From the IMG/VR virus record IMGVR_UViG_3300044970_001522, positions 86,278 to 150,277 of that record: 64,000 nucleotides of DNA; one strand, given 5' to 3'. How positions within the stretch are numbered: position 1 is the stretch's first letter; the number at the start of each line of letters is the position of its first letter. Both the position numbers and the translations under genes were made by a program. A model generated the notes under the pieces. That model did no database searches. It was not told where the DNA came from and was given only the letters and a program-made list of their open reading frames with translations. This document shows, piece by piece, positions 1,549 through 12,803 of the stretch. This DNA is from a virus (taxonomy: Duplodnaviria > Heunggongvirae > Uroviricota > Caudoviricetes).

Positions 1549-1737
1549 ATGCAATCCGTTAAACCTCTCGCAAACGAAACCGAGTACGACCTTGCCCTTA
1601 AGGACATCGACCGCTACTGGGACGCTTCGAAGGGTAGCCCCGAGTACAACCGGTTAGAGACCTTGATAATTTTGGTAGAGGAATACGAGGCTAAGCACTG
1701 GCCCATTTCGCCCCCCAGACTTGAATCCAAATCTTGA
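1549..1737 (+). CDS. HigA-type antitoxin N-terminal fragment (no HTH)
   Basis: VKPLANETEYDLALKDIDRYWDASKGSPEYNRLETLIILVEEYEAKHWPI matches the N-terminus of E. coli-type HigA antitoxins, then stops. Confidence 0.7.
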   Translation: MQSVKPLANETEYDLALKDIDRYWDASKGSPEYNRLETLIILVEEYEAKHWPISPPRLESKS

Positions 1738-1879
1738 AGAGTGGTGCAGACTCGACGAAATAAACCAAGGAGAATACCTGCGGGCTGTGGGCGCGAGCCT
1801 GGTCGAACGACTCCAGTTACTGGTGGCGGGTGTCCAAGTCGACCTCGACGAGATCCTATCGCCGGACGAGTCCGACTAG
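1721..1879 (+). CDS. PrlF-like antitoxin C-terminal fragment (52 aa, not in ORF track)
   Basis: TTG start; MNPNLEEWCRLDEINQGEYLRAVGASLVERLQLLVAGVQVDLDEILSPDESD resembles the PrlF/SohA C-terminus (LVxRxQxLVxGVxVDLDxxL). Confidence 0.55.
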   Translation: MNPNLEEWCRLDEINQGEYLRAVGASLVERLQLLVAGVQVDLDEILSPDESD

Positions 1880-1952
1880 GGGGACCTCGCCAGGGAACCT
1901 TTACCTCGACTCCGGTCCAGCATACTAATTCACACCCCTAAACCACTGAAAA

Positions 1953-2546
1953 ATGAGAAACGCCACAATATACACTCTAACGAAGACGGTCGTACCCGTT
2001 TATGACAATGACAAGTACGTTAGGTACGCTCCACTCTTAGACCCTGACGAACTCTTTCGCATTCCTACAGATGACCCCAACAACAAGGTCTTACTCACGA
2101 GGAGAACACTCGTAGAAAATCTCCAGCTTCACGAAGTTGGCATATGCTCAAGTTTACCTCTTCATGATCTTCCTGAGGTTGAACGTTTATACTTAGAGAG
2201 TTACGATGAGGGTCGGAAGTCCGGGATCTACGACCCCTCCTACCTTCACTTATTTGCGATTGAGCCTCAGACCGAGAAGATTTTATCCACCTACATTAAC
2301 TCCAAACTCCGTAATAAGGTGGTTAAGCTTGAAGACACAATATACGACCAAGGGCAGAAACTTTGGACGCTAGGGCGAAACCTTGAGAAGTCCCAGAATG
2401 ATGCTCGTGCCTTAGCAAACTCCCTTAAGGTTACTGAAGGGAGGTTAGAACGGTACAGAAAAGAACCGCTGCTCAAGAGACTATGGATTGCCCTTCGACT
2501 CCGGCAAGACGGTTCTAACTGTGCGACCTTGATGCCACACTTTTAA
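1953..2546 (+). CDS. hypothetical protein with C-terminal coiled coil
   Basis: 197-aa ORF, ATG start. Confidence 0.7.
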   Translation: MRNATIYTLTKTVVPVYDNDKYVRYAPLLDPDELFRIPTDDPNNKVLLTRRTLVENLQLHEVGICSSLPLHDLPEVERLYLESYDEGRKSGIYDPSYLHLFAIEPQTEKILSTYINSKLRNKVVKLEDTIYDQGQKLWTLGRNLEKSQNDARALANSLKVTEGRLERYRKEPLLKRLWIALRLRQDGSNCATLMPHF

Positions 2547-2576
2547 CTCATTTGAGCAAACACCGAAGGTTCTAGT

Positions 2577-2768
2577 ATGGAAGAAACTGACTACAAGACA
2601 GAGTATATGAGAATTTCAACCCTTGTCGGGTCGCAATTCCCAGAATGCGAAGTTACTACGCCAGATATGGTAATACTTTTGATACACGAAAACGACACGT
2701 TGCGTATGGCACTTAATTTACCCACGAGACGTGAGGTTCTTTCCAAACTTGACGAGTTTTACGAATGA
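2577..2768 (+). CDS. hypothetical protein
   Basis: 63-aa ORF filling the gap on the coding strand. Confidence 0.55.
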   Translation: MEETDYKTEYMRISTLVGSQFPECEVTTPDMVILLIHENDTLRMALNLPTRREVLSKLDEFYE

Positions 2769-2783
2769 TTTCCACACAACAAT

Positions 2784-3545
2784 ATGACCGATAAACTGCT
2801 AGATGGCCAGGACCCAGTGAAAGAAGTACGGAACTACACGTTTTCTAGAGACTACGATACTCTGTACGACTTGAGCATGAACCAGTCGGTAGTGTGTGAA
2901 GTTGATTTTCATACAATTCAGAGTGATGGCAGGAAACGAAAGGGCAGAGAAATCTGCTCGACTAAATACCACCCTTTCACGGGAAGTCACTGCGTAGGGG
3001 GCCGAGGAAAAGGTTACATCGACGCCGATAGCCTGGACGACTTTGTGAGCCAGTGTAGAACCTGCAACTTGATTTGGTTCGTTCCTGACCGCTGGGGGGA
3101 CTCCCACCTACAAGAGTCAGTCGGCCAGACCCGGCCAGACCTTGCCGAACAAACTTATAACACAATGACTCAGCACAATTCGATTGAAGTCCCCGACGAA
3201 CTAGTTCATAGTTGGTGGCCTAGCGAGGGGTATTATGAGCGAGATGGTGATCTAAACATCCTCGCCGACAAGGCCGCACAATGGGGCGCCGACCAGGAGC
3301 TTGCTGCTTGCTGCGACTGGTTGCGCCTCCAAGAAGATCCTCAGTTTAGTTCCGACGACGGGTGGGTGGGTAAAGACCAGGAACTTCGTGAAGCACGCAG
3401 GCCCAACGTACCTACACTTAATGAAATCGCCCTGCAATTCATGGGGACCATCGAGAAAGACGGACGGTACCTACCTGAGATTACAAGCACTATTGTAAGA
3501 GCTTTGGTTGAAGGAGGGGAGGCTCTAAAAGAGCTCAATGGCTGA
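2784..3545 (+). CDS. hypothetical two-domain protein
   Basis: 253-aa ORF; C-terminal half has a WGADQELAACCDWL...LREARRP motif typical of small cyanophage ORFs. Confidence 0.7.
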   Translation: MTDKLLDGQDPVKEVRNYTFSRDYDTLYDLSMNQSVVCEVDFHTIQSDGRKRKGREICSTKYHPFTGSHCVGGRGKGYIDADSLDDFVSQCRTCNLIWFVPDRWGDSHLQESVGQTRPDLAEQTYNTMTQHNSIEVPDELVHSWWPSEGYYERDGDLNILADKAAQWGADQELAACCDWLRLQEDPQFSSDDGWVGKDQELREARRPNVPTLNEIALQFMGTIEKDGRYLPEITSTIVRALVEGGEALKELNG

Positions 3546-3774
3546 TAGATTGTACAAACAGGGGTGCCCGTGCTTTTATTGTGTCAAGGAAAGGGCAAAC
3601 GCCACAGCGCAACCTTTGGTTCACCCTATGGCCGTTTGTCCAACTTGCGGCAACAAAAGGTGTCCAAAAGGAACTCACCACTCGTTCAACTGCAGCGGAA
3701 GCAACGAAGCAGGGCAGTTGGGAAGCCGCTACACCTTACCTGGCATTACACACACTGACCTTTCTCCAGCATGA
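3538..3774 (+). CDS. small Cys-rich (Zn-binding) protein
   Basis: CPCFYC and CPTCGNKRCPK motifs; overlaps both neighbours. Confidence 0.65.
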   Translation: MADRLYKQGCPCFYCVKERANATAQPLVHPMAVCPTCGNKRCPKGTHHSFNCSGSNEAGQLGSRYTLPGITHTDLSPA

Positions 3775-3980
3775 CGACGCAAGTACCCGTACCCTTTACC
3801 GAGCGGTACCCTGGACCGGAAGACTGTAGTACAAACGGGGAGTTTTGGGTGTTTTGCCCAGGAATCGGTTGTAGCGATTGTTGGACACTCATGCGGTACG
3901 ACAGCCAGAACTTAGAATCTCGAGAGAAATACGGTCTCACTCATTGGTTGCCATACAACTCAATACCCTGCCCTGTTTAA
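3771..3980 (+). CDS. small protein with THWLP motif (DUF551-like)
   Basis: YGLTHWLPY C-terminal motif. Confidence 0.55.
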   Translation: MTTQVPVPFTERYPGPEDCSTNGEFWVFCPGIGCSDCWTLMRYDSQNLESREKYGLTHWLPYNSIPCPV

Positions 3981-3981
3981 G

Positions 3982-4347
3982 ATGAACTTGCGTGACGCAC
4001 GAGAGAAAGCCTTGCAGATTTCTGCTGAAACTGAGCATGGCTTATTGAAGGATAGAGAAGCTGAGTGTAAGCTCTACAGAGCTGCTCCCGGTGAAACCTT
4101 TGACCCTGTAAGTGTTTCTGACCGTCTACCTAAACTTTCCGATTCTGACGCCGAAGAACTATGTTGGTGGTGGAGAACCGACGCCGACGGGTCAGCAGTT
4201 GAGGGTATGTGGGAAATGCTACAATTTGACTGGCCAGTTAGAAAATATAACCTCTCAGGGAGCGGTTACAACTACACACACTGGCTGCCACACTGGGCCA
4301 TTGTAAATCCTAATGCCTCCTTAGTTAAAGAACATGGCAAACAATAG
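3982..4347 (+). CDS. protein with THWLP motif (DUF551-like)
   Basis: PVSVSDRLP...CWWW...YTHWLPHWA. Confidence 0.6.
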   Translation: MNLRDAREKALQISAETEHGLLKDREAECKLYRAAPGETFDPVSVSDRLPKLSDSDAEELCWWWRTDADGSAVEGMWEMLQFDWPVRKYNLSGSGYNYTHWLPHWAIVNPNASLVKEHGKQ

Positions 4348-4540
4348 ACAATGCTCAACTTGCTTTTACTCGGTCTCAACTCCAGTTGTAGACCCTATAA
4401 TAGCCTCGCTTACTGATCCCAGTAACTACGGCTTAGGAGCGTGGCGAACTTCAACAAAATGCCACATTCAAGGTCCACCCAAAGAAGTTAACGCTGACAT
4501 AGATTGGTGCTTCCAGTGGAGATCCAGAGACCGCATATGA
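4334..4540 (+). CDS. small Cys-containing protein
   Basis: CSTCFY...CH...DWCFQW pattern. Confidence 0.55.
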   Translation: MANNRQCSTCFYSVSTPVVDPIIASLTDPSNYGLGAWRTSTKCHIQGPPKEVNADIDWCFQWRSRDRI

Positions 4541-4849
4541 AAAAAAAAGGCGACAAACTTTACCAGAAAAATCCCAAGCTATACTACCGGCATAGTTAAC
4601 CGTAGACCCCAATGCTCGCCCTACTTGCCGTAACTTACCTGCTTGTGGGCTTTGCAAGGCTCCTTTCCGCACTCCCAGACTACGATCTACCGGTTATCGG
4701 GCACAGGGTGAGAATTTTGGACGTTTGCGGCCATGTTTTACTCTGGCCCTGCCCAGCAACCGCAAAGTTTCTAAGGAAGCTACGCCGTTGACCCGCTGAT
4801 CCGGAACCTGGCTCCGCTCATTTAAACTTGAACACCACTAGACCCTAAG

Positions 4850-5233
4850 ATGAACGAAAAAACACCTCTACAGCAACTCCAAGAATGGCAAGAGCTTTGT
4901 GACCACTTTCGAACCTTGCACACGAAAGGTGTCGCTGCCCCCGAAAACTCACTGAGTGTTGGAGTTGAGGGGTACATAGATCCTCTTTCCAGGGAAACCA
5001 CACTAGAAGCAGGGTGGACCCTAAATGGAAAGAAATTCACACGATCTACAACTTTCTCAACCATTTTATCGGAGTACAGAAACGGGCGGTGTGAGGAGAG
5101 TGCAGAAGCCGTTTCAAGACTCGCCGGACTAATTGCTAAAGATGTCACAAGGGGGCTCGAAGAAGAAATGTACCGTCTTTTGCTGTCGTCTCCCAATTCA
5201 GTCCTACCTCGAAACTTTGCGCCACCGGAATAG
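4850..5233 (+). CDS. hypothetical protein
   Basis: 127-aa ORF, ATG start. Confidence 0.65.
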   Translation: MNEKTPLQQLQEWQELCDHFRTLHTKGVAAPENSLSVGVEGYIDPLSRETTLEAGWTLNGKKFTRSTTFSTILSEYRNGRCEESAEAVSRLAGLIAKDVTRGLEEEMYRLLLSSPNSVLPRNFAPPE

Positions 5234-5281
5234 TCCTGTGTCCTTCCCTGTGTAAAGTACGGTTGACCGTTTGCTTCGAGA

Positions 5282-5322
5282 CGGTTTCCCGCCTTTACTT
5301 CCCTGGTGAAAACCGGCATACT
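5282..5322 (+). promoter_or_regulatory. sigma70-type early promoter with upstream CGG-N4-CCG element
   Basis: CGGTTTCCCG, then TTTACT(5294)-17 nt-CATACT(5317). Confidence 0.6.
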
Positions 5323-5357
5323 TAGTAAAAGATGGCCTAACACGTGGGGGCGAAGCA

Positions 5358-5585
5358 ATGAGCAAAAGCTGTGGATCCTGTGCCTGCTACACCAAGTGGA
5401 AAAAAGATTCCCTTGTGGCAGAAAACGGCGGTAAAGGAGGCGAATTAGCCTCAGGACTGTGTGAGTTTCTCGACGCACGCACAAAGCCCGACTGGGGTCG
5501 CAGCTGCCCGCACTGGGTTGGTAAACGATACGACCGGAACACCTTGAAAAAGCAAACACTGAGCGAAATCAACGAGAATGATTAA
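5358..5585 (+). CDS. small Cys-rich protein
   Basis: CGSCACY...GLCEF...CPHW. Confidence 0.6.
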   Translation: MSKSCGSCACYTKWKKDSLVAENGGKGGELASGLCEFLDARTKPDWGRSCPHWVGKRYDRNTLKKQTLSEINEND

Positions 5586-6093
5586 CCGAACTTTGATAGC
5601 GAGAATCCAGAGCTACTACCCGAACTGGTTCCAGGACACGAATTGGAGTGACGAGGACGTTCTCGATGCCATTACCATAGCAAAGCGTGTTGAGTCCGGA
5701 GAAGAAAAAACATATTCCTTTGAGGAAGCAATGGAAGATCTCGAACTCACCGGGGAACTTGGGTTGGTGACCCGCACCGAGAGGGGATTTGAGGTCATTG
5801 ACTTTCAAGATCTACACAACAAGGAGTGCAGCCTGCAACAAAGCTCCCTTGCCGTTTATTGGGAGCCAGGGACGTCTGCGGTGTGGTTGGGCCAAGGGGA
5901 AGATAGAATGCACCTTGGGGAAGAACAGGTTCAGTCCCTGGTTACTGTTTTGCAAAGGTGGCTGGACACAGGTTCTTTCATTCCCTACCCTACTACAGAA
6001 GTATCACCCCTCTCAAAATTTGCTGGGATCCTTAAGAACATTTTTGGGCTTGCCTTAAGACCACTCAAATCACTTACAAATCGAAACCAATGA
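5578..6093 (+). CDS. fusion: RelB/CopG-type antitoxin C-terminal-like segment plus phage domain of unknown function
   Basis: DEDVLDAITIAKRVESGEEKTYSFEEAMEDLEL followed by TERGFEVIDFQD...CSLQQSSLA...VWLG...RMHL. Confidence 0.55.
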   Translation: MINRTLIARIQSYYPNWFQDTNWSDEDVLDAITIAKRVESGEEKTYSFEEAMEDLELTGELGLVTRTERGFEVIDFQDLHNKECSLQQSSLAVYWEPGTSAVWLGQGEDRMHLGEEQVQSLVTVLQRWLDTGSFIPYPTTEVSPLSKFAGILKNIFGLALRPLKSLTNRNQ

Positions 6094-6383
6094 CTTACAA
6101 TGAGAAGACCCTTTAGTGTATTAAAGAGATTGGGGAGAAGGTTGATCTTAGGTTAGTTCAGGAATTCACCCCTGAGCAAGAGAGCTTTTTAAGGGCCACC
6201 CTGAAACAGGAAACCTTAGCAGCTTTGGACGAGGGATTAGCCCTTGCGGTTCAGATGATAAGGGAATCCCCACCTGGCTTAACTCGTGATCAACTGGCTA
6301 ATTTAATTGAGAACTGTATTGGCGACAAAAGAGCCTTAGAAGTTGTTTTATCCTCACTGGGTCTTTTAACGACCCTAGACTAG
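6090..6383 (+). pseudogene. ORF interrupted by in-frame TAG at codon 9 (6114-6116)
   Basis: ATG overlaps the upstream stop (ATGA); the frame stays open for 88 codons after the TAG, to TAG 6381-6383. Confidence 0.55.
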
Positions 6384-6384
6384 C

Positions 6385-6606
6385 TTGAAACCAAATGGAA
6401 GCTTAATGACACTACACCCTTACAGCTACTATACAAAGCCCGAAGAGTGGCAAACGTGTTACACCAAGCATTCAGCCGACGGGAAGTCCCCGAATCTGTG
6501 TTACGAAGAACTAATTGACACGATTGTAGACCTTTACGACAAACTTGCTAAGCTAGAGGCGAGGCTGGACCAAGAAGACTCTTATAGGTACGAACAAAAT
6601 GACTGA
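6385..6606 (+). CDS. hypothetical protein
   Basis: ORF on coding strand; true start may be an internal ATG. Confidence 0.55.
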   Translation: MKPNGSLMTLHPYSYYTKPEEWQTCYTKHSADGKSPNLCYEELIDTIVDLYDKLAKLEARLDQEDSYRYEQND

Positions 6607-6886
6607 CGACGACAAACTACTTGCTGACTACGACTCCGAAATTCACGGAGAATATACACCCCTGGAACCACTTACTGTTGCATCACTAATTGAGAGTCAC
6701 AGACACTTAAGGCAGAAAAACTTAGAGTGGCACGGGGCGTATAACGAAGCAGGAAGAGAAGGCTATGAGCAAGGTTACTCCTTTGGACTGAAGATGGCAA
6801 CAGAAGCCACGATCATGATCGAAGCCCTTCGCAAAATGACTATTCAGGAACTTGCAAATCTAGTCGGAGACGAGAATGCCTTCTGA
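6599..6886 (+). CDS. hypothetical protein
   Basis: 95-aa ORF overlapping neighbours. Confidence 0.65.
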   Translation: MTDDDKLLADYDSEIHGEYTPLEPLTVASLIESHRHLRQKNLEWHGAYNEAGREGYEQGYSFGLKMATEATIMIEALRKMTIQELANLVGDENAF

Positions 6887-7103
6887 GTCATCTGAGAGCC
6901 TAAGTCCTGAAGCACAGTCAATAGACGATGCTTTTAACGGGTACCATGAGCTGGTGAATCGTCGTGTAAAGATTGCCGCTGTACTCCGCGCAATTGCTGA
7001 GCTGTGCGAGCCCGACCTTGTGTTCGGGTTAAAGACAATTCGCCAGGGGAAACTAATATCTCTTGCCATCGAACTTGAGGGGCCGACGGGTCCCCAAGGC
7101 TAG
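6876..7103 (+). CDS. small LSPEA-motif protein
   Basis: LSPEAQSIDDAF...AAVLRAIAE; paralogue of 7572-7805. Confidence 0.6.
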   Translation: MPSESSESLSPEAQSIDDAFNGYHELVNRRVKIAAVLRAIAELCEPDLVFGLKTIRQGKLISLAIELEGPTGPQG

Positions 7104-7122
7104 AACGAAAACCTATTGATGA

Positions 7123-7494
7123 ATGGTGAAGCAAATGAGTAGCATCCCTGGTCTCACCCTTGAGTCCTACGTAATGTGGAACCATAACCTTGTCGTTATT
7201 AGGTATCTCAGTGCAAACACATCTTTTCAGATTGCTGAAGCACTCGGGATTAACACATATCGGGTGAGCTTGTCCCAGGCGCAATTTGACACGATCCTTG
7301 CCATTTACGAGCCGTACCGTACAATCGTGGAGTATCTGTTGGAAAACTTTGACGATAATCTTTTGTCTTGGACGGACTACGCTGGTGTTTGCTTTAACGG
7401 TGTGACGGACACCATTGGAGACGAGGTGTCAAGGGCCTTACACAATTTTTCTACTGAGAGGGCCATGAAACAACTGCCAGGCAACAATGTTTGA
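7123..7494 (+). CDS. hypothetical protein
   Basis: 123-aa ORF. Confidence 0.6.
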   Translation: MVKQMSSIPGLTLESYVMWNHNLVVIRYLSANTSFQIAEALGINTYRVSLSQAQFDTILAIYEPYRTIVEYLLENFDDNLLSWTDYAGVCFNGVTDTIGDEVSRALHNFSTERAMKQLPGNNV

Positions 7495-7571
7495 AATTTT
7501 GTACTCAACCCTCGGTACTATCGCCGGTTGTTTCTTGCTGTCCATTCTAATTATCACCTTTCTGGGGATGA

Positions 7572-7805
7572 ATGACTAAGCATACACTCAGCCCTGAAGC
7601 CGAAGCCGCATGGAACGCCTACTGCGACGTTGCAGACCGCATCGGAGTTTTTGAAGACACCGGTGAAGCACTAGCTGCTTTTCTTCGAGAACTGATAACG
7701 CAGATTGAATTTAGAGGTGAACTCGGACTAACACCGCTTGGCGCACACGGGCACTACCAAGAGAAGTTGTACGCGATTGCAACTGAGTTGGATGGGCACG
7801 GTTAA
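7572..7805 (+). CDS. small LSPEA-motif protein
   Basis: LSPEAEAAWNAY...ALAAFLREL; paralogue of 6876-7103. Confidence 0.6.
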   Translation: MTKHTLSPEAEAAWNAYCDVADRIGVFEDTGEALAAFLRELITQIEFRGELGLTPLGAHGHYQEKLYAIATELDGHG

Positions 7806-7819
7806 CCGGCTGCTCTGGG

Positions 7820-7861
7820 GCGGTTTACCGCCTTGCCTTTCCGCAAGGAAAGCGGTATAGT
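7820..7861 (+). promoter_or_regulatory. sigma70-type early promoter with hairpin spacer
   Basis: GCGGTTTACCGC, TTGCCT(7833)-17 nt-TATAGT(7856); CTTTCC-GCAA-GGAAAG palindrome at 7837-7852. Confidence 0.75.
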
Positions 7862-7897
7862 TACCTTATACATACTCGCGCAGACTCAACTTTCATT

Positions 7898-8674
7898 ATG
7901 CAACCGGCAGACTTTTACGTTAGAAGTCCAAAGTCCGTGGAGTGGCTCGGGTCTATTTCCTCCGACGGTGGTGTTCTTGAAACTATTTGTCCGGAAATCA
8001 CGTTCGTCACCTCCGCGCACGAGTTCCGGTCCGGAATCAGGCGCATAGCCAAACGGGACGACTTTCACTCTCCTGAAGAGGGTTGGCCCTGGAAATGGGA
8101 AACCAGCGCATCTACCGACTTTTGCTATGTCTTTACGAAGGACCAAGTGGAGGTCTACAAGTTTGGCCGAAAGAGGTCTTTCACCGAAGACGACACCGCC
8201 GTATACTCTAGCCGAAAAGACACTTGGTTCCCGGACATGTCGAGTGCTAAGAGCACGGTTAGCCTCTCCGGCACTAAGACTCCAAAACTAGAGTTTCTTG
8301 AGATATCGGCAGAAGTGAGGTACTGGGAAGACGCGACAGTCAATGAGACGATTGATAAAGAGGGGACACTCATCCCCTTAAGGACCGGTAAATGTTGGAC
8401 TCCAACAATTCGCCTGAAAGACGGTCAGGTGATGGAGTGGCCCTACGGAGTCACCGCCGAAATTTACTACAAAGTGTGCGACCAAGGTGAGTACTGGCTC
8501 AGAGACTCGGAGCACCGCTTATTTAAGTACCGTGGGGATTACGTTCCTGACGAGTACTTGTGCAAAGGTGACGCGGGGTTCGGCGACTACATTATCTTGT
8601 CTATCGACAAAGCCGGTAAAGTTCGAAACTGGTGGCGACCGAAATTCAAGGCGAACGAGTGGGAGGCTGTATGA
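7898..8674 (+). CDS. hypothetical two-domain phage protein
   Basis: 258-aa ORF directly downstream of the promoter. Confidence 0.75.
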   Translation: MQPADFYVRSPKSVEWLGSISSDGGVLETICPEITFVTSAHEFRSGIRRIAKRDDFHSPEEGWPWKWETSASTDFCYVFTKDQVEVYKFGRKRSFTEDDTAVYSSRKDTWFPDMSSAKSTVSLSGTKTPKLEFLEISAEVRYWEDATVNETIDKEGTLIPLRTGKCWTPTIRLKDGQVMEWPYGVTAEIYYKVCDQGEYWLRDSEHRLFKYRGDYVPDEYLCKGDAGFGDYIILSIDKAGKVRNWWRPKFKANEWEAV

Positions 8675-8752
8675 GCGATCCCCCCCGGTATTGAGGAAGA
8701 TTGTCCCATAAAATTTCGCCTAGCATTTTCTAGGTAACACTACTGCAACACA

Positions 8753-9859
8753 ATGAAAACAAAAACCGCAGCAACCGCAGCAACTGTCTTGGCTTTGACT
8801 TTCGCCTTAGCAACCCTGCTCTCGGCAACACCGGCACTCGCAGCGTCAGCCGGACGAATAAGCGGACGGAGCTTTCGCAGTTCGTCTAGCTATAACCGAC
8901 CATCTCGGTCCCCAAGTTATAAGAGTAGCCGCTCCAGCTCTCCAAGCTATAGGGCCTCTCCCTCACCGGTGCTAAGAAGCATCCCTGCACCGGGGCTGAG
9001 TAGAAGTTCAAGCTACTACGGTGGCGGCCCTTCGAGAGCGTACCGAAAAACACTACCCTATAGCAACCCCGGAAACAACAGAACGAACATTATTGTCATG
9101 CCGGACATGACACCGAACGTTTATCCGATTGCTCCTCCACTTTATTCGTCGCAAGTGGCACCAGTGCCGCAAACACCTGTGAGCCCTGCGTTCTTTTTCG
9201 TACTCCTTGCTGTGTTGGGGGCTGGGGGCTTGGCTATCTTTCTGCTGGCTGGGGGTTGGGACGACTTTGTGAGCCCATGGGTGAGTACTCAGCGGGACAA
9301 GCTTAGAAAGACGACCGTGGTGAGGCAGCGAGTGGCCTTGCTCGCCTCTGCAAAGGACCTACAAACAGACCTAATACGACTCGCTCGGCGAGGGGACACG
9401 GACAGTGCTGAGGGTCTCTCGAAGATCCTGCAAGAAACTTCCCTCGCCCTTCTTCGCCACCCCGACAAAGTTGTTTACGCGTGGAGCAGTACTGAGCAGG
9501 TGGCGTCAGGAGAGGCAGAAAGCCGATTCGACCAACTTTCCATGGAAGAACGCTCGAAGGCATCAGAGGAAGTTCTCACGAATGTGGGCGGGAGCATCTC
9601 AGAACGTGGGGTCGAATCCCGAAGGGACGTCAAGGAAAATGAGTATATCCTTGTGAGCGTGCTTGTGGCATCGGACCGAAAGCTGGATCTCAAACTGTCG
9701 GACTCGCACGAGAGCTTAAACGCCAATCTTGTAACCCTTGGTTCAGTCTCTCCTGAGGATCTGATGGCACTGGAAGTTATTTGGCAACCCGAAGACGAGT
9801 TTGATGTTCTGTCAAAGGATGAACTTTTGAGCCTGTATCCTGACTTAAACGTTCTGTAG
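8753..9859 (+). CDS. DUF1517 / FLAP1-like membrane protein
   Basis: Signal peptide ending PALA, GRISGRSF plus Ser/Arg-rich stretch, one TM helix, then LQETSLALLRHP, FDQLSMEERSK, NEYILVSVLVA, LEVIWQP. Confidence 0.8.
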   Translation: MKTKTAATAATVLALTFALATLLSATPALAASAGRISGRSFRSSSSYNRPSRSPSYKSSRSSSPSYRASPSPVLRSIPAPGLSRSSSYYGGGPSRAYRKTLPYSNPGNNRTNIIVMPDMTPNVYPIAPPLYSSQVAPVPQTPVSPAFFFVLLAVLGAGGLAIFLLAGGWDDFVSPWVSTQRDKLRKTTVVRQRVALLASAKDLQTDLIRLARRGDTDSAEGLSKILQETSLALLRHPDKVVYAWSSTEQVASGEAESRFDQLSMEERSKASEEVLTNVGGSISERGVESRRDVKENEYILVSVLVASDRKLDLKLSDSHESLNANLVTLGSVSPEDLMALEVIWQPEDEFDVLSKDELLSLYPDLNVL

Positions 9860-9877
9860 AAATAAAGTGCAAAAGAA

Positions 9878-10153
9878 GTGTCGTACAGGCACTTCCTTAG
9901 TCACTTTAAGAACCCTTATTGTTCACATGTTATAATGACTAACCAAAGAGAACCCACCCAAGAACAAGCGGCTAAATGGCAGTGGGGTGACGAGTTGCTG
10001 GAACGAAAGCTGCCGTCGCCTGAGGAACAAGCCGTAGCTGACGCCGAGCACTCACTGCGAATGGTAGCGGCAGGCCTACAGCTAGAAAAAGCGGATAACC
10101 GCCCTGAGCGGGGCGGTTTAGGCCCTTGCCTTATAGCGACAAAAACGCTATAG
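9878..10153 (+). CDS. hypothetical protein (likely start ATG 9935)
   Basis: ORF on coding strand. Confidence 0.45.
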   Translation: MSYRHFLSHFKNPYCSHVIMTNQREPTQEQAAKWQWGDELLERKLPSPEEQAVADAEHSLRMVAAGLQLEKADNRPERGGLGPCLIATKTL

Positions 10154-10154
10154 T
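10112..10154 (+). promoter_or_regulatory. sigma70-type early promoter with hairpin spacer
   Basis: GGCGGTTTAGGCCC, TTGCCT(10126)-17 nt-TATAGT(10149); TATAGCG...CGCTATA inverted repeat. Confidence 0.7.
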
Positions 10155-10160
10155 AAATGT

Positions 10161-10394
10161 ATGGAAAACTTCCGCGCCATTTGCGCTGCCCTACTCGACG
10201 AGATACCCTACGAGTCCCCCACAACGTGCCTCGCACTTGCAGCGTTGAAAGAGTCGCAGGTGAAGGGACCGACTGAAAAAGACATCTTCAATATCATTTC
10301 TTGGATGATTGACCAGAGAGTTATTGATAACGACTCCGGTGAAATATCTGAGGCGATACAGAGAGTGATTGACTTGTTTAGGGAAACACTGTGA
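10161..10394 (+). CDS. hypothetical protein
   Basis: 77-aa ORF after the promoter; NFRAICAALLDE start typical of small cyanophage ORFs. Confidence 0.6.
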   Translation: MENFRAICAALLDEIPYESPTTCLALAALKESQVKGPTEKDIFNIISWMIDQRVIDNDSGEISEAIQRVIDLFRETL

Positions 10395-11026
10395 AAATCA
10401 GATTTATTGGTGATGTACATGGCAAATGGTCGAAGTATGAGAAGCTAATCAAAGGCTGCGACCGCTCTCTTCAAGTCGGGGACTTCGGTGTGGGTTTCAT
10501 CGACCCGAAGACCGAGAAGCCATACAGCAGCCCACCCTACGACGCGATGTCAAAAGGTGAGCACTTTTTCGTACGGGGAAACCACGACAGTCCCGGTGCC
10601 TGCAAAAGACACCCCTACTGGGTGAAAGACGGGGGATCGGTGTTCGGTCGCGACGACATTTTTTGTGTGGGTGGAGCTTACTCCATCGATAGGGACCGAC
10701 GTACCGAGCGCTACGACTGGTGGCCCGACGAAGAACTGGCTTACGGTGAACTCTGCAATATTATGGACGTGTACGAGCTTGTGAAGCCGAAGGTTGTCGT
10801 CACGCATGAGTGTCCTGACTCTGTAATTTCGTTAGTGTGTCACAAAATAGGAAAGCACAAATTTGACATCCCTTCGGTAACACGAAGGTGTTTCGACAAC
10901 ATGCTCGAGATTCATAAACCGGACCTTTGGATTCATGGCCACTGGCATCTAAATCACCATACGGTGTACAAAGGTGTGGAATTTATTGGTCTTGATGAGC
11001 TATCCTTCCTCGATATGGACGTTTAA
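10391..11026 (+). CDS. calcineurin-like metallophosphoesterase
   Basis: IGDVHG, QVGDFG, VRGNHD, VTHECP, IHGHWH motifs. Confidence 0.9.
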   Translation: MKIRFIGDVHGKWSKYEKLIKGCDRSLQVGDFGVGFIDPKTEKPYSSPPYDAMSKGEHFFVRGNHDSPGACKRHPYWVKDGGSVFGRDDIFCVGGAYSIDRDRRTERYDWWPDEELAYGELCNIMDVYELVKPKVVVTHECPDSVISLVCHKIGKHKFDIPSVTRRCFDNMLEIHKPDLWIHGHWHLNHHTVYKGVEFIGLDELSFLDMDV

Positions 11027-11153
11027 TCAAGCCTCCACTCATAGGGAACGTCGTACGAAGGTCAATTACAAGGAAGCTACACCGCTATACTAAGTTTGTG
11101 GCCCCCTTTCTTTATCCCTATGAGCCTTAAATCAAAACCACCATTAAAGCAAA

Positions 11154-11723
11154 ATGACAACAGTAATTAACCTCTTCGGCGGGTCCGGTTGCGGAAAATC
11201 AACCACAGCTGCGCTCCTCTTCGCCAGAATGAAGCTGGCCGGCATTCACGTTGAACTTGTAAGAGAGTATGTGAAGTACTGGGCGTGGAACGACCGCAAG
11301 GTGCGCGAGTGGGACCAGCTTTACCTCCTTGGTAAGCAAAGCGCGTATGAGAGCATGCTGTACGGCAAAGTTGACTACATTGTTACCGACAGCCCTATAC
11401 TTCTGGCAGGAATCTACCAAGACTACCGGTCTCAAGGCAAAGACACGTACGTAAGTTCCGCCGCTCAATCCTTCATGGCTCACGCAGAGGAAAGGGGTGT
11501 AACGTACAAGAATTTCTTCCTAAATCGCATCAAGCCCTTCGACCCTCGCGGACGTTACGAAACCGAAGACCAAGCCAGATCGGTTGACGATTTTGTCTAC
11601 GACTATCTGTGCAAGTACAGTGGGTTCCGCCCAATTACAATATCTGGACCGGACGAACGCAGGGACACAGAGATTTTGAGCTATCTTGGTGAGCTACATT
11701 TTAAGGAGGCTCCCTCGCTGTGA
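11154..11723 (+). CDS. NadR/Ttd14-like P-loop nucleotide kinase (AAA_28)
   Basis: INLFGGSGCGKSTTA Walker A, ELVREYVK, IVTDSPILL, GRYET. Confidence 0.8.
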   Translation: MTTVINLFGGSGCGKSTTAALLFARMKLAGIHVELVREYVKYWAWNDRKVREWDQLYLLGKQSAYESMLYGKVDYIVTDSPILLAGIYQDYRSQGKDTYVSSAAQSFMAHAEERGVTYKNFFLNRIKPFDPRGRYETEDQARSVDDFVYDYLCKYSGFRPITISGPDERRDTEILSYLGELHFKEAPSL

Positions 11724-11902
11724 CACTAACTTTCCGAGAACTTTTAGAAAGTTTGCAGACTTTTTCTAACGATGACCTGGACAAGGACGCTACTGTGGAG
11801 GTAGACGGGGAATGTTTTGGAGTGTCCCACGTGGGAGTGTCCACAAATCTGGATGACGCACTTGATGAAGGGCACCCCTTTCTTTCAACTGCAACAAGGT
11901 AA
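11720..11902 (+). CDS. hypothetical protein
   Basis: 60-aa ORF, GTGA overlap with upstream stop. Confidence 0.55.
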   Translation: MTLTFRELLESLQTFSNDDLDKDATVEVDGECFGVSHVGVSTNLDDALDEGHPFLSTATR

Positions 11903-11916
11903 AGTGTTGCCTTAGG

Positions 11917-11958
11917 ATGGTTCCCCGGCTTGCTTTGCTGAGGCAAAGCCGCTGTAAT
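11917..11958 (+). promoter_or_regulatory. sigma70-type early promoter with hairpin spacer
   Basis: TTGCTT(11930)-17 nt-TGTAAT(11953); CTTTGC-TGAG-GCAAAG palindrome at 11933-11948. Confidence 0.6.
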
Positions 11959-11981
11959 ACGTTCATAACTCCTGAAAACCA

Positions 11982-12158
11982 ATGTCATACAACCCGGACT
12001 CAGATACCTACCCCTTCAACGACAGCGAGACTCTGTTAAACTTCCTGGACCGTCTTCTACTGGAGTCCGTGTCGTGCGAAGGAGGCCTTGTGCCCCTCAC
12101 TTCTTCTCGGTTTCAACGCCTTTCCAGGCTTGTTGAAGGTGTCTCAATTGACGATTGA
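11982..12158 (+). CDS. PrlF-like antitoxin C-terminal fragment (58 aa, not in ORF track)
   Basis: MSYNPDSDTYPFNDSETLLNFLDRLLLESVSCEGGLVPLTSSRFQRLSRLVEGVSIDD; FLxFL...PL...RL..LVEGV.ID pattern. Confidence 0.55.
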   Translation: MSYNPDSDTYPFNDSETLLNFLDRLLLESVSCEGGLVPLTSSRFQRLSRLVEGVSIDD

Positions 12159-12202
12159 CCTTGACCCCCGTTGGGCGGTGAGCGGTTAGCCCCCTTGCCT
12201 TG

Positions 12203-12244
12203 GGCGGTTTCCCCGTTTGTTTTCCAGAAGGAAAACGCTATAGT
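12203..12244 (+). promoter_or_regulatory. sigma70-type early promoter with hairpin spacer
   Basis: GGCGGTTTCCCCG, TTTGTT(12216)-17 nt-TATAGT(12239); TTTTCC-AGAA-GGAAAA palindrome at 12220-12235. Confidence 0.7.
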
Positions 12245-12268
12245 ATTTACGTGACCTTCGAAGAACCA

Positions 12269-12535
12269 ATGTCATTCAACCCAGACTGGGCTTCACCTCC
12301 AGGGTCTATCGTAAGGGAGTTACGTCTGGAGCGTAGAATTTCTCTTCACGACTTTGCGGGAGAAACAGGGTTAACCGTACCCGAAGTTCTTGAACTTGAG
12401 GAAGGGAACCTTCGCATCGACCCTCATCTAGCGGAGCGCCTTGAGTACGTGTTCGGACAACCAACTGAAAAGTTTTGGCTCACCCTTCAACTAAACTACG
12501 ACAATGACCTTAAAAGAGGAAGAAAGCATGATTGA
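12269..12535 (+). CDS. higA: HigA/VapI-family HTH antitoxin-like protein
   Basis: PDWASPPG...ISLHDFAGETG...LEEGNLRIDPHLAERLEYVFG...FWLTLQLNYD; start set at ATG 12269, downstream of the promoter. Confidence 0.8.
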   Translation: MSFNPDWASPPGSIVRELRLERRISLHDFAGETGLTVPEVLELEEGNLRIDPHLAERLEYVFGQPTEKFWLTLQLNYDNDLKRGRKHD

Positions 12536-12803
12536 GCTACTTGTAACGGAGAACAAAAGTATTGATCCCGCACGATTTTACCGAAACCGAGTTCGTGTCT
12601 TTCTCGATAGAAACTACAACTATGGTATGTGGGTAGACGAAGACAAATTGTTTGACCTTTTGTCGCTGGAGCAGAAAAAACAGTACCTTGTTGACAGATC
12701 CCCTAGTGGATGCAAGTACAATGTTACACGAGAGGTAGCACAGAGGGTTCTTGCAGTGGGGCACACTCACCTCAGTAAGCAGAAACTTCGCCCATGCTTG
12801 TGA
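12504..12803 (+). CDS. hypothetical protein (likely start ATG 12528)
   Basis: ORF on coding strand. Confidence 0.6.
   Translation: MTLKEEESMIELLVTENKSIDPARFYRNRVRVFLDRNYNYGMWVDEDKLFDLLSLEQKKQYLVDRSPSGCKYNVTREVAQRVLAVGHTHLSKQKLRPCL

Follow-up and report, generated by a model that had tools for sequence, protein, structure and literature searches.

Phages that carry an antitoxin without its toxin have been described before. The DarG-like antitoxin enzymes of T4-like phages counter DarTG1 (PMC11825919), an antitoxin mimic has been described for a Vibrio cholerae phage (10.1101/2023.12.14.571748), and the cyanophage S-CREM1 carries three toxin-less antitoxin genes, YefM, TacA and MazE, for which a decoy role has been proposed (PMC9964418). 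Two bacterial systems are also relevant here: in the HigBA complex of Escherichia coli, HigA wraps around its partner HigB with two N-terminal helices and has its helix-turn-helix (HTH) at the C-terminus (PMC7984235), and PD-lambda-2 comprises a HigB-like protein, a HigA-like HTH-peptidase and the product of a third gene, with component B being toxic and component A neutralizing it (PMC9519451). We describe here four genes, apparently put together from pieces of host type II antitoxins, in a 64,000-nucleotide stretch of DNA (hereafter, the window) from a Caudoviricetes phage, which corresponds to bases 86278-150277 of the 189.9-kb IMG/VR record IMGVR_UViG_3300044970_001522 (G000; estimated to be 67% complete); a fifth such gene lies outside the window. 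The explanation that we find best, and to which we would give a little better than an even chance on the sequence evidence set out below, is a decoy function: derived from host antitoxins, unaccompanied by toxins and retained by selection, the genes would encode proteins that bind the toxins of the host.

The phage appears to be a large lytic-type cyanophage. All of the long open reading frames (ORFs), and all of the phage features described below, are on the + strand, and the region studied is a series of ~32 small genes in this orientation, for which a megablast search of a phage collection gave no match. A preliminary description of this DNA listed five separate antitoxin fragments. The five ORFs do exist, but they represent four genes, as 1549-1737 and 1721-1879 belong to a single chimera that is split by a 1-nt insertion. 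The same description held that only toxin-binding parts had been kept and that most DNA-binding domains had been trimmed; in three of the four genes it is indeed non-DNA-binding halves that are matched, but such trimming is not general, since the fourth gene, of HigA type, still has an HTH and what it is missing is a peptidase. As controls, 20 other ORFs of the region were compared with NCBIfam at E <= 0.05; because none of them (0/20) matched a toxin-antitoxin-related family, the antitoxin resemblances go beyond chance.

The HigA-PrlF chimeric gene

The first gene (1549..1879), as is apparent from intact single ORFs in related phages, encodes a HigA N-terminal two-helix domain followed by a PrlF-like C-terminal tail. 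Profile matches identify the N-terminal module (1549..1719) as a HigA domain of the YgjM/COG5499 type without the HTH that normally follows: residues 1-57 match phrog_10398 (E = 2.4e-13), and the PADLOC profile PD-Lambda-2_B is matched over positions 1-58 of 402 (1.2e-7). A profile built from the phage family matched 3362 representative clusters; many of the relatives listed run on into an Xre HTH and read like COG5499 HigA proteins of 115-150 amino acids (aa), with HTH_3 being found in 13 of 79 sampled family sequences. Searches of the PDB with single sequences of both halves, or with a narrow family profile, returned nothing meaningful, and a broader family profile reached the HigA proteins of E. 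coli and Shigella (5IFG_B and 5YCL_A) at ~5e-9, with the N-domain lying within the alignment. In an AlphaFold2 (AF2) model of the chimera, the N-terminal module is predicted to be a two-helix hairpin (helices 10-23 and 31-50; predicted local distance difference test (pLDDT) scores >94), followed by a long helix at residues 60-91 with a pLDDT of ~60. The top Foldseek rows for this model are the HigA chains of HigBA complexes, albeit at an E of ~0.7, which is not significant.

The cellular relatives of this module were sought in a broad genome scan with a 12-sequence alignment, an earlier scan with a narrow alignment having given no matches. The best are from Cyanobium, Vulcanococcus and freshwater Synechococcus, with 58-63% identity over residues 1-57, and identities in other phyla do not exceed 56%. 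The freshwater picocyanobacteria, the clade with the closest HigA N-domain relatives, are the likely host clade. Where cellular HigA has its HTH, the phage gene has a PPD linker and then the PrlF-like tail; no HTH was found in the truncated 62-aa product (see below) or in the intact forms of 87-109 aa. In metagenomic proteins, the HigA N-domain is coupled to many different C-terminal parts. The tails of three of these proteins (P0019, P0022 and P0054) were considered as other antitoxin tails and gained no support from NCBIfam, and one of 230 aa (P0010) consists of four tandem HigA N-domains and nothing else.

The tail (1721..1879) aligns with positions 65-99 of 99 in the PrlF_antitoxin profile PF15937 (7.4e-6, or 2.2e-6 for the intact database protein P0008) and also matches NF007429 (3.2e-6). 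The PF15937 scores of 26.5-28.2 bits lie under the cut-off of 32 because only one third of the PrlF profile is present. For the cellular comparisons of PrlF, as for those of the RelB-like proteins and the HigA-type HTH, the search covered the picocyanobacterial order. Against a hidden Markov model (HMM) of the C-terminal halves of 12 picocyanobacterial PrlF proteins, the tail ranks first among the 4611 six-frame segments of the whole record (1.1e-9). Moreover, BLASTP aligns P0008 to a Synechococcus PrlF with 21/56 identities (E = 3e-7) and, by eye, 16 of the last 26 residues of the tail are identical to those of several picocyanobacterial PrlF proteins.

In the record itself, the gene is broken into two overlapping frames, 1549-1737 and 1721-1879. 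Both halves are kept in six related phage contigs, where they form a single ORF of 89 aa (L003, L004 and L006; for instance, L004:4001-4270) or 109 aa (L005, L007 and L008; 4001-4327 in both L005 and L007); P0008 is a further intact form, and other forms in the databases span 87-109 aa. DNA alignment with these relatives attributes the frameshift to one extra C in the homopolymer at 1711..1716, which reads CCCCCC in the window, CCCCC in L005 and L007, and CCTCC in L004. The position of this C-run coincides with the boundary between the two modules (S-P-P-D), and what appears to be a TTG start of ORF 1721-1879 is, in the intact gene, a Leu codon within the reading frame. The truncated product of 62 aa has been recorded from four contigs (sources: NCBI, JGI and Logan), so the extra C probably stems from the reads and not from a slip of the assembler.

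Two types are combined in the copy of the window, a mosaic with an N-domain 96% identical to that of the L004 type and a tail whose DNA is identical to that of L005. The C-run is thereby marked as a recombination junction, and the mosaic switch, the extra C and the module boundary coincide on this one run. A Pro-rich linker is present at the corresponding point in both host HigA (ISPPEP) and host PrlF (VSPEPDD), and the similarity of these linkers might have helped the original fusion. The ratio of non-synonymous to synonymous change (pN/pS) between L005 and L007 is 0.20 overall (N-domain, 0.14; tail, 0.41), which indicates that the chimera is under purifying selection. Outside the phage cluster, none of the 149 best representative relatives of the N-domain carries a PrlF-like tail. 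The possibility that the chimera was taken whole from bacteria gained no support, as 16/16 bacterial loci that match at full length are ordinary HigA genes with an HTH; together, these two results confine the chimera, among what was searched, to this phage lineage. Directly upstream, 1119-1523 encodes an HTH_17 (MerR/excisionase-like) protein, and in the database protein P0003 (153 aa), part of this HTH_17 protein and the chimera are joined in a single frame.

PrlF-like, RelB-like and HigA-type genes

A second PrlF-like module stands alone, as a 58-aa peptide (11982..12158) that is collinear by alignment with the C-terminal half of PrlF and lacks the AbrB-type DNA-binding domain. BLASTP aligns it without gaps to residues 49-95 of a Synechococcus PrlF (15/47 identities, E = 1e-5). 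Compared with the 12 host PrlF proteins, it reaches a Smith-Waterman score of 59; shuffled sequences average 29 and do not exceed 50 (z = 6.3, 0/1000 shuffles), and six control ORFs gave z <= 0.5 against host PrlF. The AbrB/SpoVT-type N-terminal domain (PrlF profile positions 1 to ~60) is unmatched by both of the PrlF-like modules of the phage; these do not align with one another in BLASTP, their kinship being visible only via host PrlF. The 58-aa ORF is retained in the related contig L022, with differences mostly at codon positions 1 and 3; the more distant L026 lacks it, and the genes on either side are direct neighbours there. The gene looks like a recent addition to the sub-lineage.

Both this gene and the HigA-type gene downstream have promoter-like leaders, at 11903..11981 and 12187..12268, respectively. 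The two are paralogous, with 81% identity that extends into the first six codons (MSYNPD and MSFNPD), and the second is a repeated element of the phage lineage: the stretch 12180-12255 recurs at eight further places in a 277-kb relative (G001; 98% complete). The promoter-like element does not fit a simple sigma-70 spacing. These leaders bear on the possibility that all of the genes are decaying relics, that is, pieces of host toxin-antitoxin loci gained by illegitimate recombination and now drifting without function. The frameshift in the chimera, and the recording of its truncated product from all three sources, would fit such a history, as would the variation in chimera length (87-109 aa) and the absence of the 58-aa gene from the more distant relative. 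We nevertheless consider it distinctly unlikely: the ORFs are intact in most relatives and have pN/pS values of 0.14-0.41, the 58-aa ORF persists and has changed mainly at codon positions 1 and 3, two of the genes have leaders of their own and, repeatedly, it is only the halves outside the DNA-binding domain that have been retained. Several contigs of this phage lineage carry the genes in conserved form.

The third gene (5578..6093) encodes a 171-aa protein in which a RelB-like segment is fused to a phrog_3849 domain. Residues 26-57 match positions 37-68 of 70 in NF048017 (RelB_like, DUF6290) at 1.3e-3 and 18.9 bits (cut-off 50); the match is strongest over the C-terminal half (ED..A..R...G.E.TYS....L.L; ~nt 5647-5757). 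In Smith-Waterman comparisons with 22 picocyanobacterial RelB-like proteins, residues 5-60 score 71 (z = 9.4, 0/1000 shuffles). The alignment begins at residue 15 of the host RelB-like protein, past the ribbon strand, and the N-terminal ribbon is missing from the phage protein. Residues 65-134 form the phrog_3849 domain (6.1e-15), a widespread small phage domain that occurs mostly alone, in proteins of 94-140 aa; versions with the RelB-like extension were seen in this phage lineage only. The pN/pS of the ORF is 0.20. The AF2 model is confident for the phrog_3849 domain only and gave no fold match in Foldseek, and a protein atlas yielded nothing interpretable, and nothing toxin-like, for this domain.

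Outside the window, a fifth antitoxin-derived gene was noted at 179236-179484 (+) of the record (G000:C1:179236-179484, equivalent to L166:437-685), which encodes 83 aa. Its last 34 residues align with the C-terminal half of host RelB-like proteins (Smith-Waterman score 84, z = 11.3, 0/1000 shuffles), and it ranks first of 4611 against a host RelB-like HMM (E = 0.01), with no NCBIfam match. It sits, as judged by eye, between speD-like and hli-like genes, which were recognized in the 189.9-kb record from a reading of their translations only, and it is 95% conserved in the 277-kb relative.

The fourth gene of the window (12269..12535) encodes an 88-aa HTH protein of the HigA/VapI type. It matches TIGR02607 (HigA) at 5.2e-8 and 32.6 bits (cut-off 47.7), as well as a complete HTH_3, and is conserved in both L022 and L026; the alignment with the L026 copy contains an indel, which makes a pN/pS value for that pair unreliable. 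Residues 2-85 are 41% identical to the N-terminal HTH of a host protein of ~380 aa with HTH_3 and Peptidase_M78 domains (L157:670-1812), such that the phage protein keeps the HTH and is without the peptidase. In this picocyanobacterial genome (G011, contig 22), a 108-aa ORF lies directly upstream of the 380-aa HTH and M78-peptidase gene; its position would suit a toxin gene, and neither Pfam nor NCBIfam recognizes it as HigB. A large ORF adjoining the locus reads, by eye, like a type I restriction-modification methylase, and the arrangement is PD-lambda-2-like, within a possible defence island.

This gene would suit a reading of the set as ordinary regulators or scaffolds, in which 12269-12535 would be an Xre-type regulator of phage or host promoters, and the helical fragments would be dimerization or linker pieces with no toxin role. 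The HTH_3 is complete and is preceded by a promoter-like element with further copies in the genome, the RelB-like segment shares its protein with a common, unrelated phage domain, and metagenomic proteins combine the HigA N-domain with many different C-terminal parts. However, three different non-DNA-binding antitoxin modules occur together in one phage and have their best matches in the host-clade antitoxins searched, no such match was seen for the 20 neighbouring ORFs, and the fragments are without exactly those parts that a regulator needs. We thus regard an ordinary regulatory or scaffolding role as unlikely.

Toxins in the phage and in the likely host clade

No HigB-like (PF05015), HigB_toxin (PF09907), YhaV (PF11663) or ParE/RelE (PF05016) sequence was found in either the 189.9-kb record or G001, which served as the second genome for these searches; the absence of a cognate toxin, previously claimed for the window, thus extends to both genomes. 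In control searches of E. coli, PF09907 and PF11663 gave only sub-cut-off signals and, since a six-frame search may detect these two families less readily, host toxin sequences were additionally compared with the phage directly, by tblastn and phmmer, again with no match. Moreover, the upstream neighbour of the HigA-type gene is the PrlF-like peptide gene, not a HigB-like toxin.

Toxins of unrecognized families would turn the same genes into toxin-antitoxin or addiction modules of the phage itself, for which there are two candidates: the C-terminal domain of 5578-6093, and a conserved ORF of 91-99 aa (12504-12803) that overlaps the end of the HigA-type gene, belongs to no family and has only weak leads in the protein atlas (DUF3440), none of them toxin-like. 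This ORF is conserved together with the HigA-type gene, and both it and the phrog_3849 domain are without known function. Neither candidate, however, is similar to any toxin family, the model of 5578-6093 matches no toxin fold, and the phrog_3849 domain occurs mostly without an antitoxin-like part. Given also that such modules suit plasmids or prophages better than an apparently large lytic-type cyanophage, this alternative strikes us as very improbable.

The likely host clade, by contrast with the phage, does encode the toxins, each in the expected pair. In Synechococcus sp. HJ21-Hayes (L031), a 98-aa HigB_toxin gene (PF09907, 110 bits) is followed by a full HigA of 152 aa; in Synechococcus sp. 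CS-1328 (L107), a full PrlF is followed by YhaV (195 bits); and in another genome of the picocyanobacterial order (L128), the gene for a 78-aa RelB-like antitoxin overlaps that for an 88-aa toxin of the ParE/RelE family. The three toxin genes lie at L031:1196-1492, L107:935-1438 (minus strand) and L128:1245-1511 (minus strand), respectively. Of the 201 genomes of this order, 13 have a PrlF above the cut-off and 24 have a RelB-like antitoxin above that of its family.

A putative decoy function and its relation to known systems

By analogy with the general architecture of type II antitoxins, the HigA N-domain, the two PrlF C-terminal halves and the RelB-like segment would be the toxin-holding parts of their parent proteins. 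We envisage the following sequence of events. As the phage takes over the cell, host gene expression would be halted and the labile host antitoxins would decay, setting free HigB, YhaV and RelE/ParE toxins; these are ribosome-dependent mRNases, and their action would cut the infection short. Expressed from promoter-like elements that belong to the phage itself, the phage proteins would then bind the freed toxins and allow translation to continue. Where the chimera is intact, it would present the modules of two unrelated antitoxin families in one polypeptide and might neutralize two toxin families at once. We infer that an advantage to the phage would lie in this neutralization and that, as the preliminary description supposed, proteins devoid of their DNA-binding domains would leave the toxin-antitoxin promoters of the host unrepressed.

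Blocking the decay of antitoxins is one phage route against toxin release, exemplified by T7 Gp4.5 and Lon. Antitoxin tails are substrates of Lon and Clp, and an excess of them from the phage could conceivably spare the host antitoxins or otherwise alter the activity of Lon. The HigA N-domain, however, is modelled as a folded hairpin with pLDDT >94 and is not degron-like, and no result presented here bears on proteolysis. A link between PrlF and Lon has been reported, in that both ectopic PrlF expression and the prlF1 allele activate the protease (PMC5408214), but such activation would release toxins, contrary to the interest of the phage. We consider a role as protease decoys or modulators to be the least probable of the explanations discussed here.

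A number of observations weigh against the decoy explanation itself. Although similarity to the HigA, PrlF and RelB families was found by profile or alignment, such that four of the five resemblances originally proposed are backed in this way, all of the library matches of the phage ORFs fall under the curated family cut-offs. The 58-aa peptide has no match in any library profile and, despite ranking second of 4611 segments against the PrlF C-half HMM, it does so at E = 0.56. A relationship closest to picocyanobacteria is established for the HigA N-domain only. No relative of solved structure is detectable by sequence for either PrlF or this RelB-like family, which is why toxin binding by their C-terminal halves is deduced from how type II antitoxins are generally built. 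The HigA-type gene retains its DNA-binding HTH and could simply be a regulator. Lastly, on account of the frameshift, at most the HigA-N half of the chimera would be made in this very genome.

A more ambitious version of the decoy explanation, which we put forward tentatively and think rather less than likely, is that the phage lineage possesses a modular and broad-spectrum toolkit. Bare toxin-holding modules would have been recombined from host antitoxins: the chimera would disarm both HigB and YhaV, its second head being switchable via the slippery C-run, and other modules would have been grafted onto either end of unrelated phage domains. If this is true, the genes would constitute a modular anti-toxin-antitoxin set, as opposed to single captured antitoxins.

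Toxin-antitoxin systems are abundant in freshwater picocyanobacteria, where they may act as abortive-infection defences. That several trimmed modules resembling host-clade antitoxins have been kept by a phage without toxins is indirect evidence that HigB, YhaV and RelE/ParE matter against cyanophages in nature, and the finding names concrete pairs of toxins and antitoxin modules. The two-module chimera would illustrate in compact form how counter-defence proteins are built from host parts, and minimal peptides of this kind, if they do bind toxins, would be useful for mapping toxin-antitoxin interfaces.

Each of the parent systems both resembles the phage genes and differs from them. The N-domain of the chimera is homologous to the HigB-wrapping helices of E. 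coli K-12 HigA (YgjM; PDB codes: 5IFG, 6KML and 6JQ4), the partner of which is a HigB of the PF09907 family; unlike the E. coli protein, the phage gene is without the C-terminal HTH, in place of which there is a PrlF-like tail, and without higB. With respect to PrlF-YhaV (PF15937/PF11663), both PrlF-like peptides of the phage align collinearly with its C-terminal half, through to the conserved LV-G-V-VDLD end of PrlF, whereas the AbrB/SpoVT-type N-terminal domain and YhaV are both missing from the phage, and the scores are under the Pfam cut-off. There is also a likeness to PD-lambda-2: the N-domain resembles the first 58 residues of PD-lambda-2_B, the build of which is similar to that of the picocyanobacterial HTH-M78 peptidase protein whose HTH matches 12269-12535. 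However, the phage has small N-terminal pieces only and is without the peptidase or a toxin-like partner. Because component B of PD-lambda-2 is itself toxic and is neutralized by component A, the effect of a decoy on a system of this kind is unpredictable.

Among the phage-encoded counterparts, the DarG-like proteins and the V. cholerae mimic share with the genes described here the provision of an antitoxin homologue or mimic without its toxin. The DarG-like proteins are enzymes that undo a toxin modification, whereas the present genes encode short, putative binding modules from type II antitoxins of ribosome-dependent mRNases. A further parallel is with S-CREM1, likewise a cyanophage with several antitoxin families and no toxins, for which toxin-antitoxin pairs are found in Synechococcus hosts. 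Its genes are annotated simply as antitoxins of other families, with no trimming reported; here, by contrast, the families are HigA, PrlF and RelB-like, three of the four genes keep the non-DNA-binding half only, and one of them joins two families. A literature search turned up no publication in which type II antitoxin modules of phages are trimmed or chimeric. Overall, then, the present genes, known from sequence alone, differ from the published orphan antitoxins in that three of the four are without DNA-binding domains and one of these three is a chimera: orphan antitoxins have already been described in phages, and it is the trimming and the chimerism that are new.

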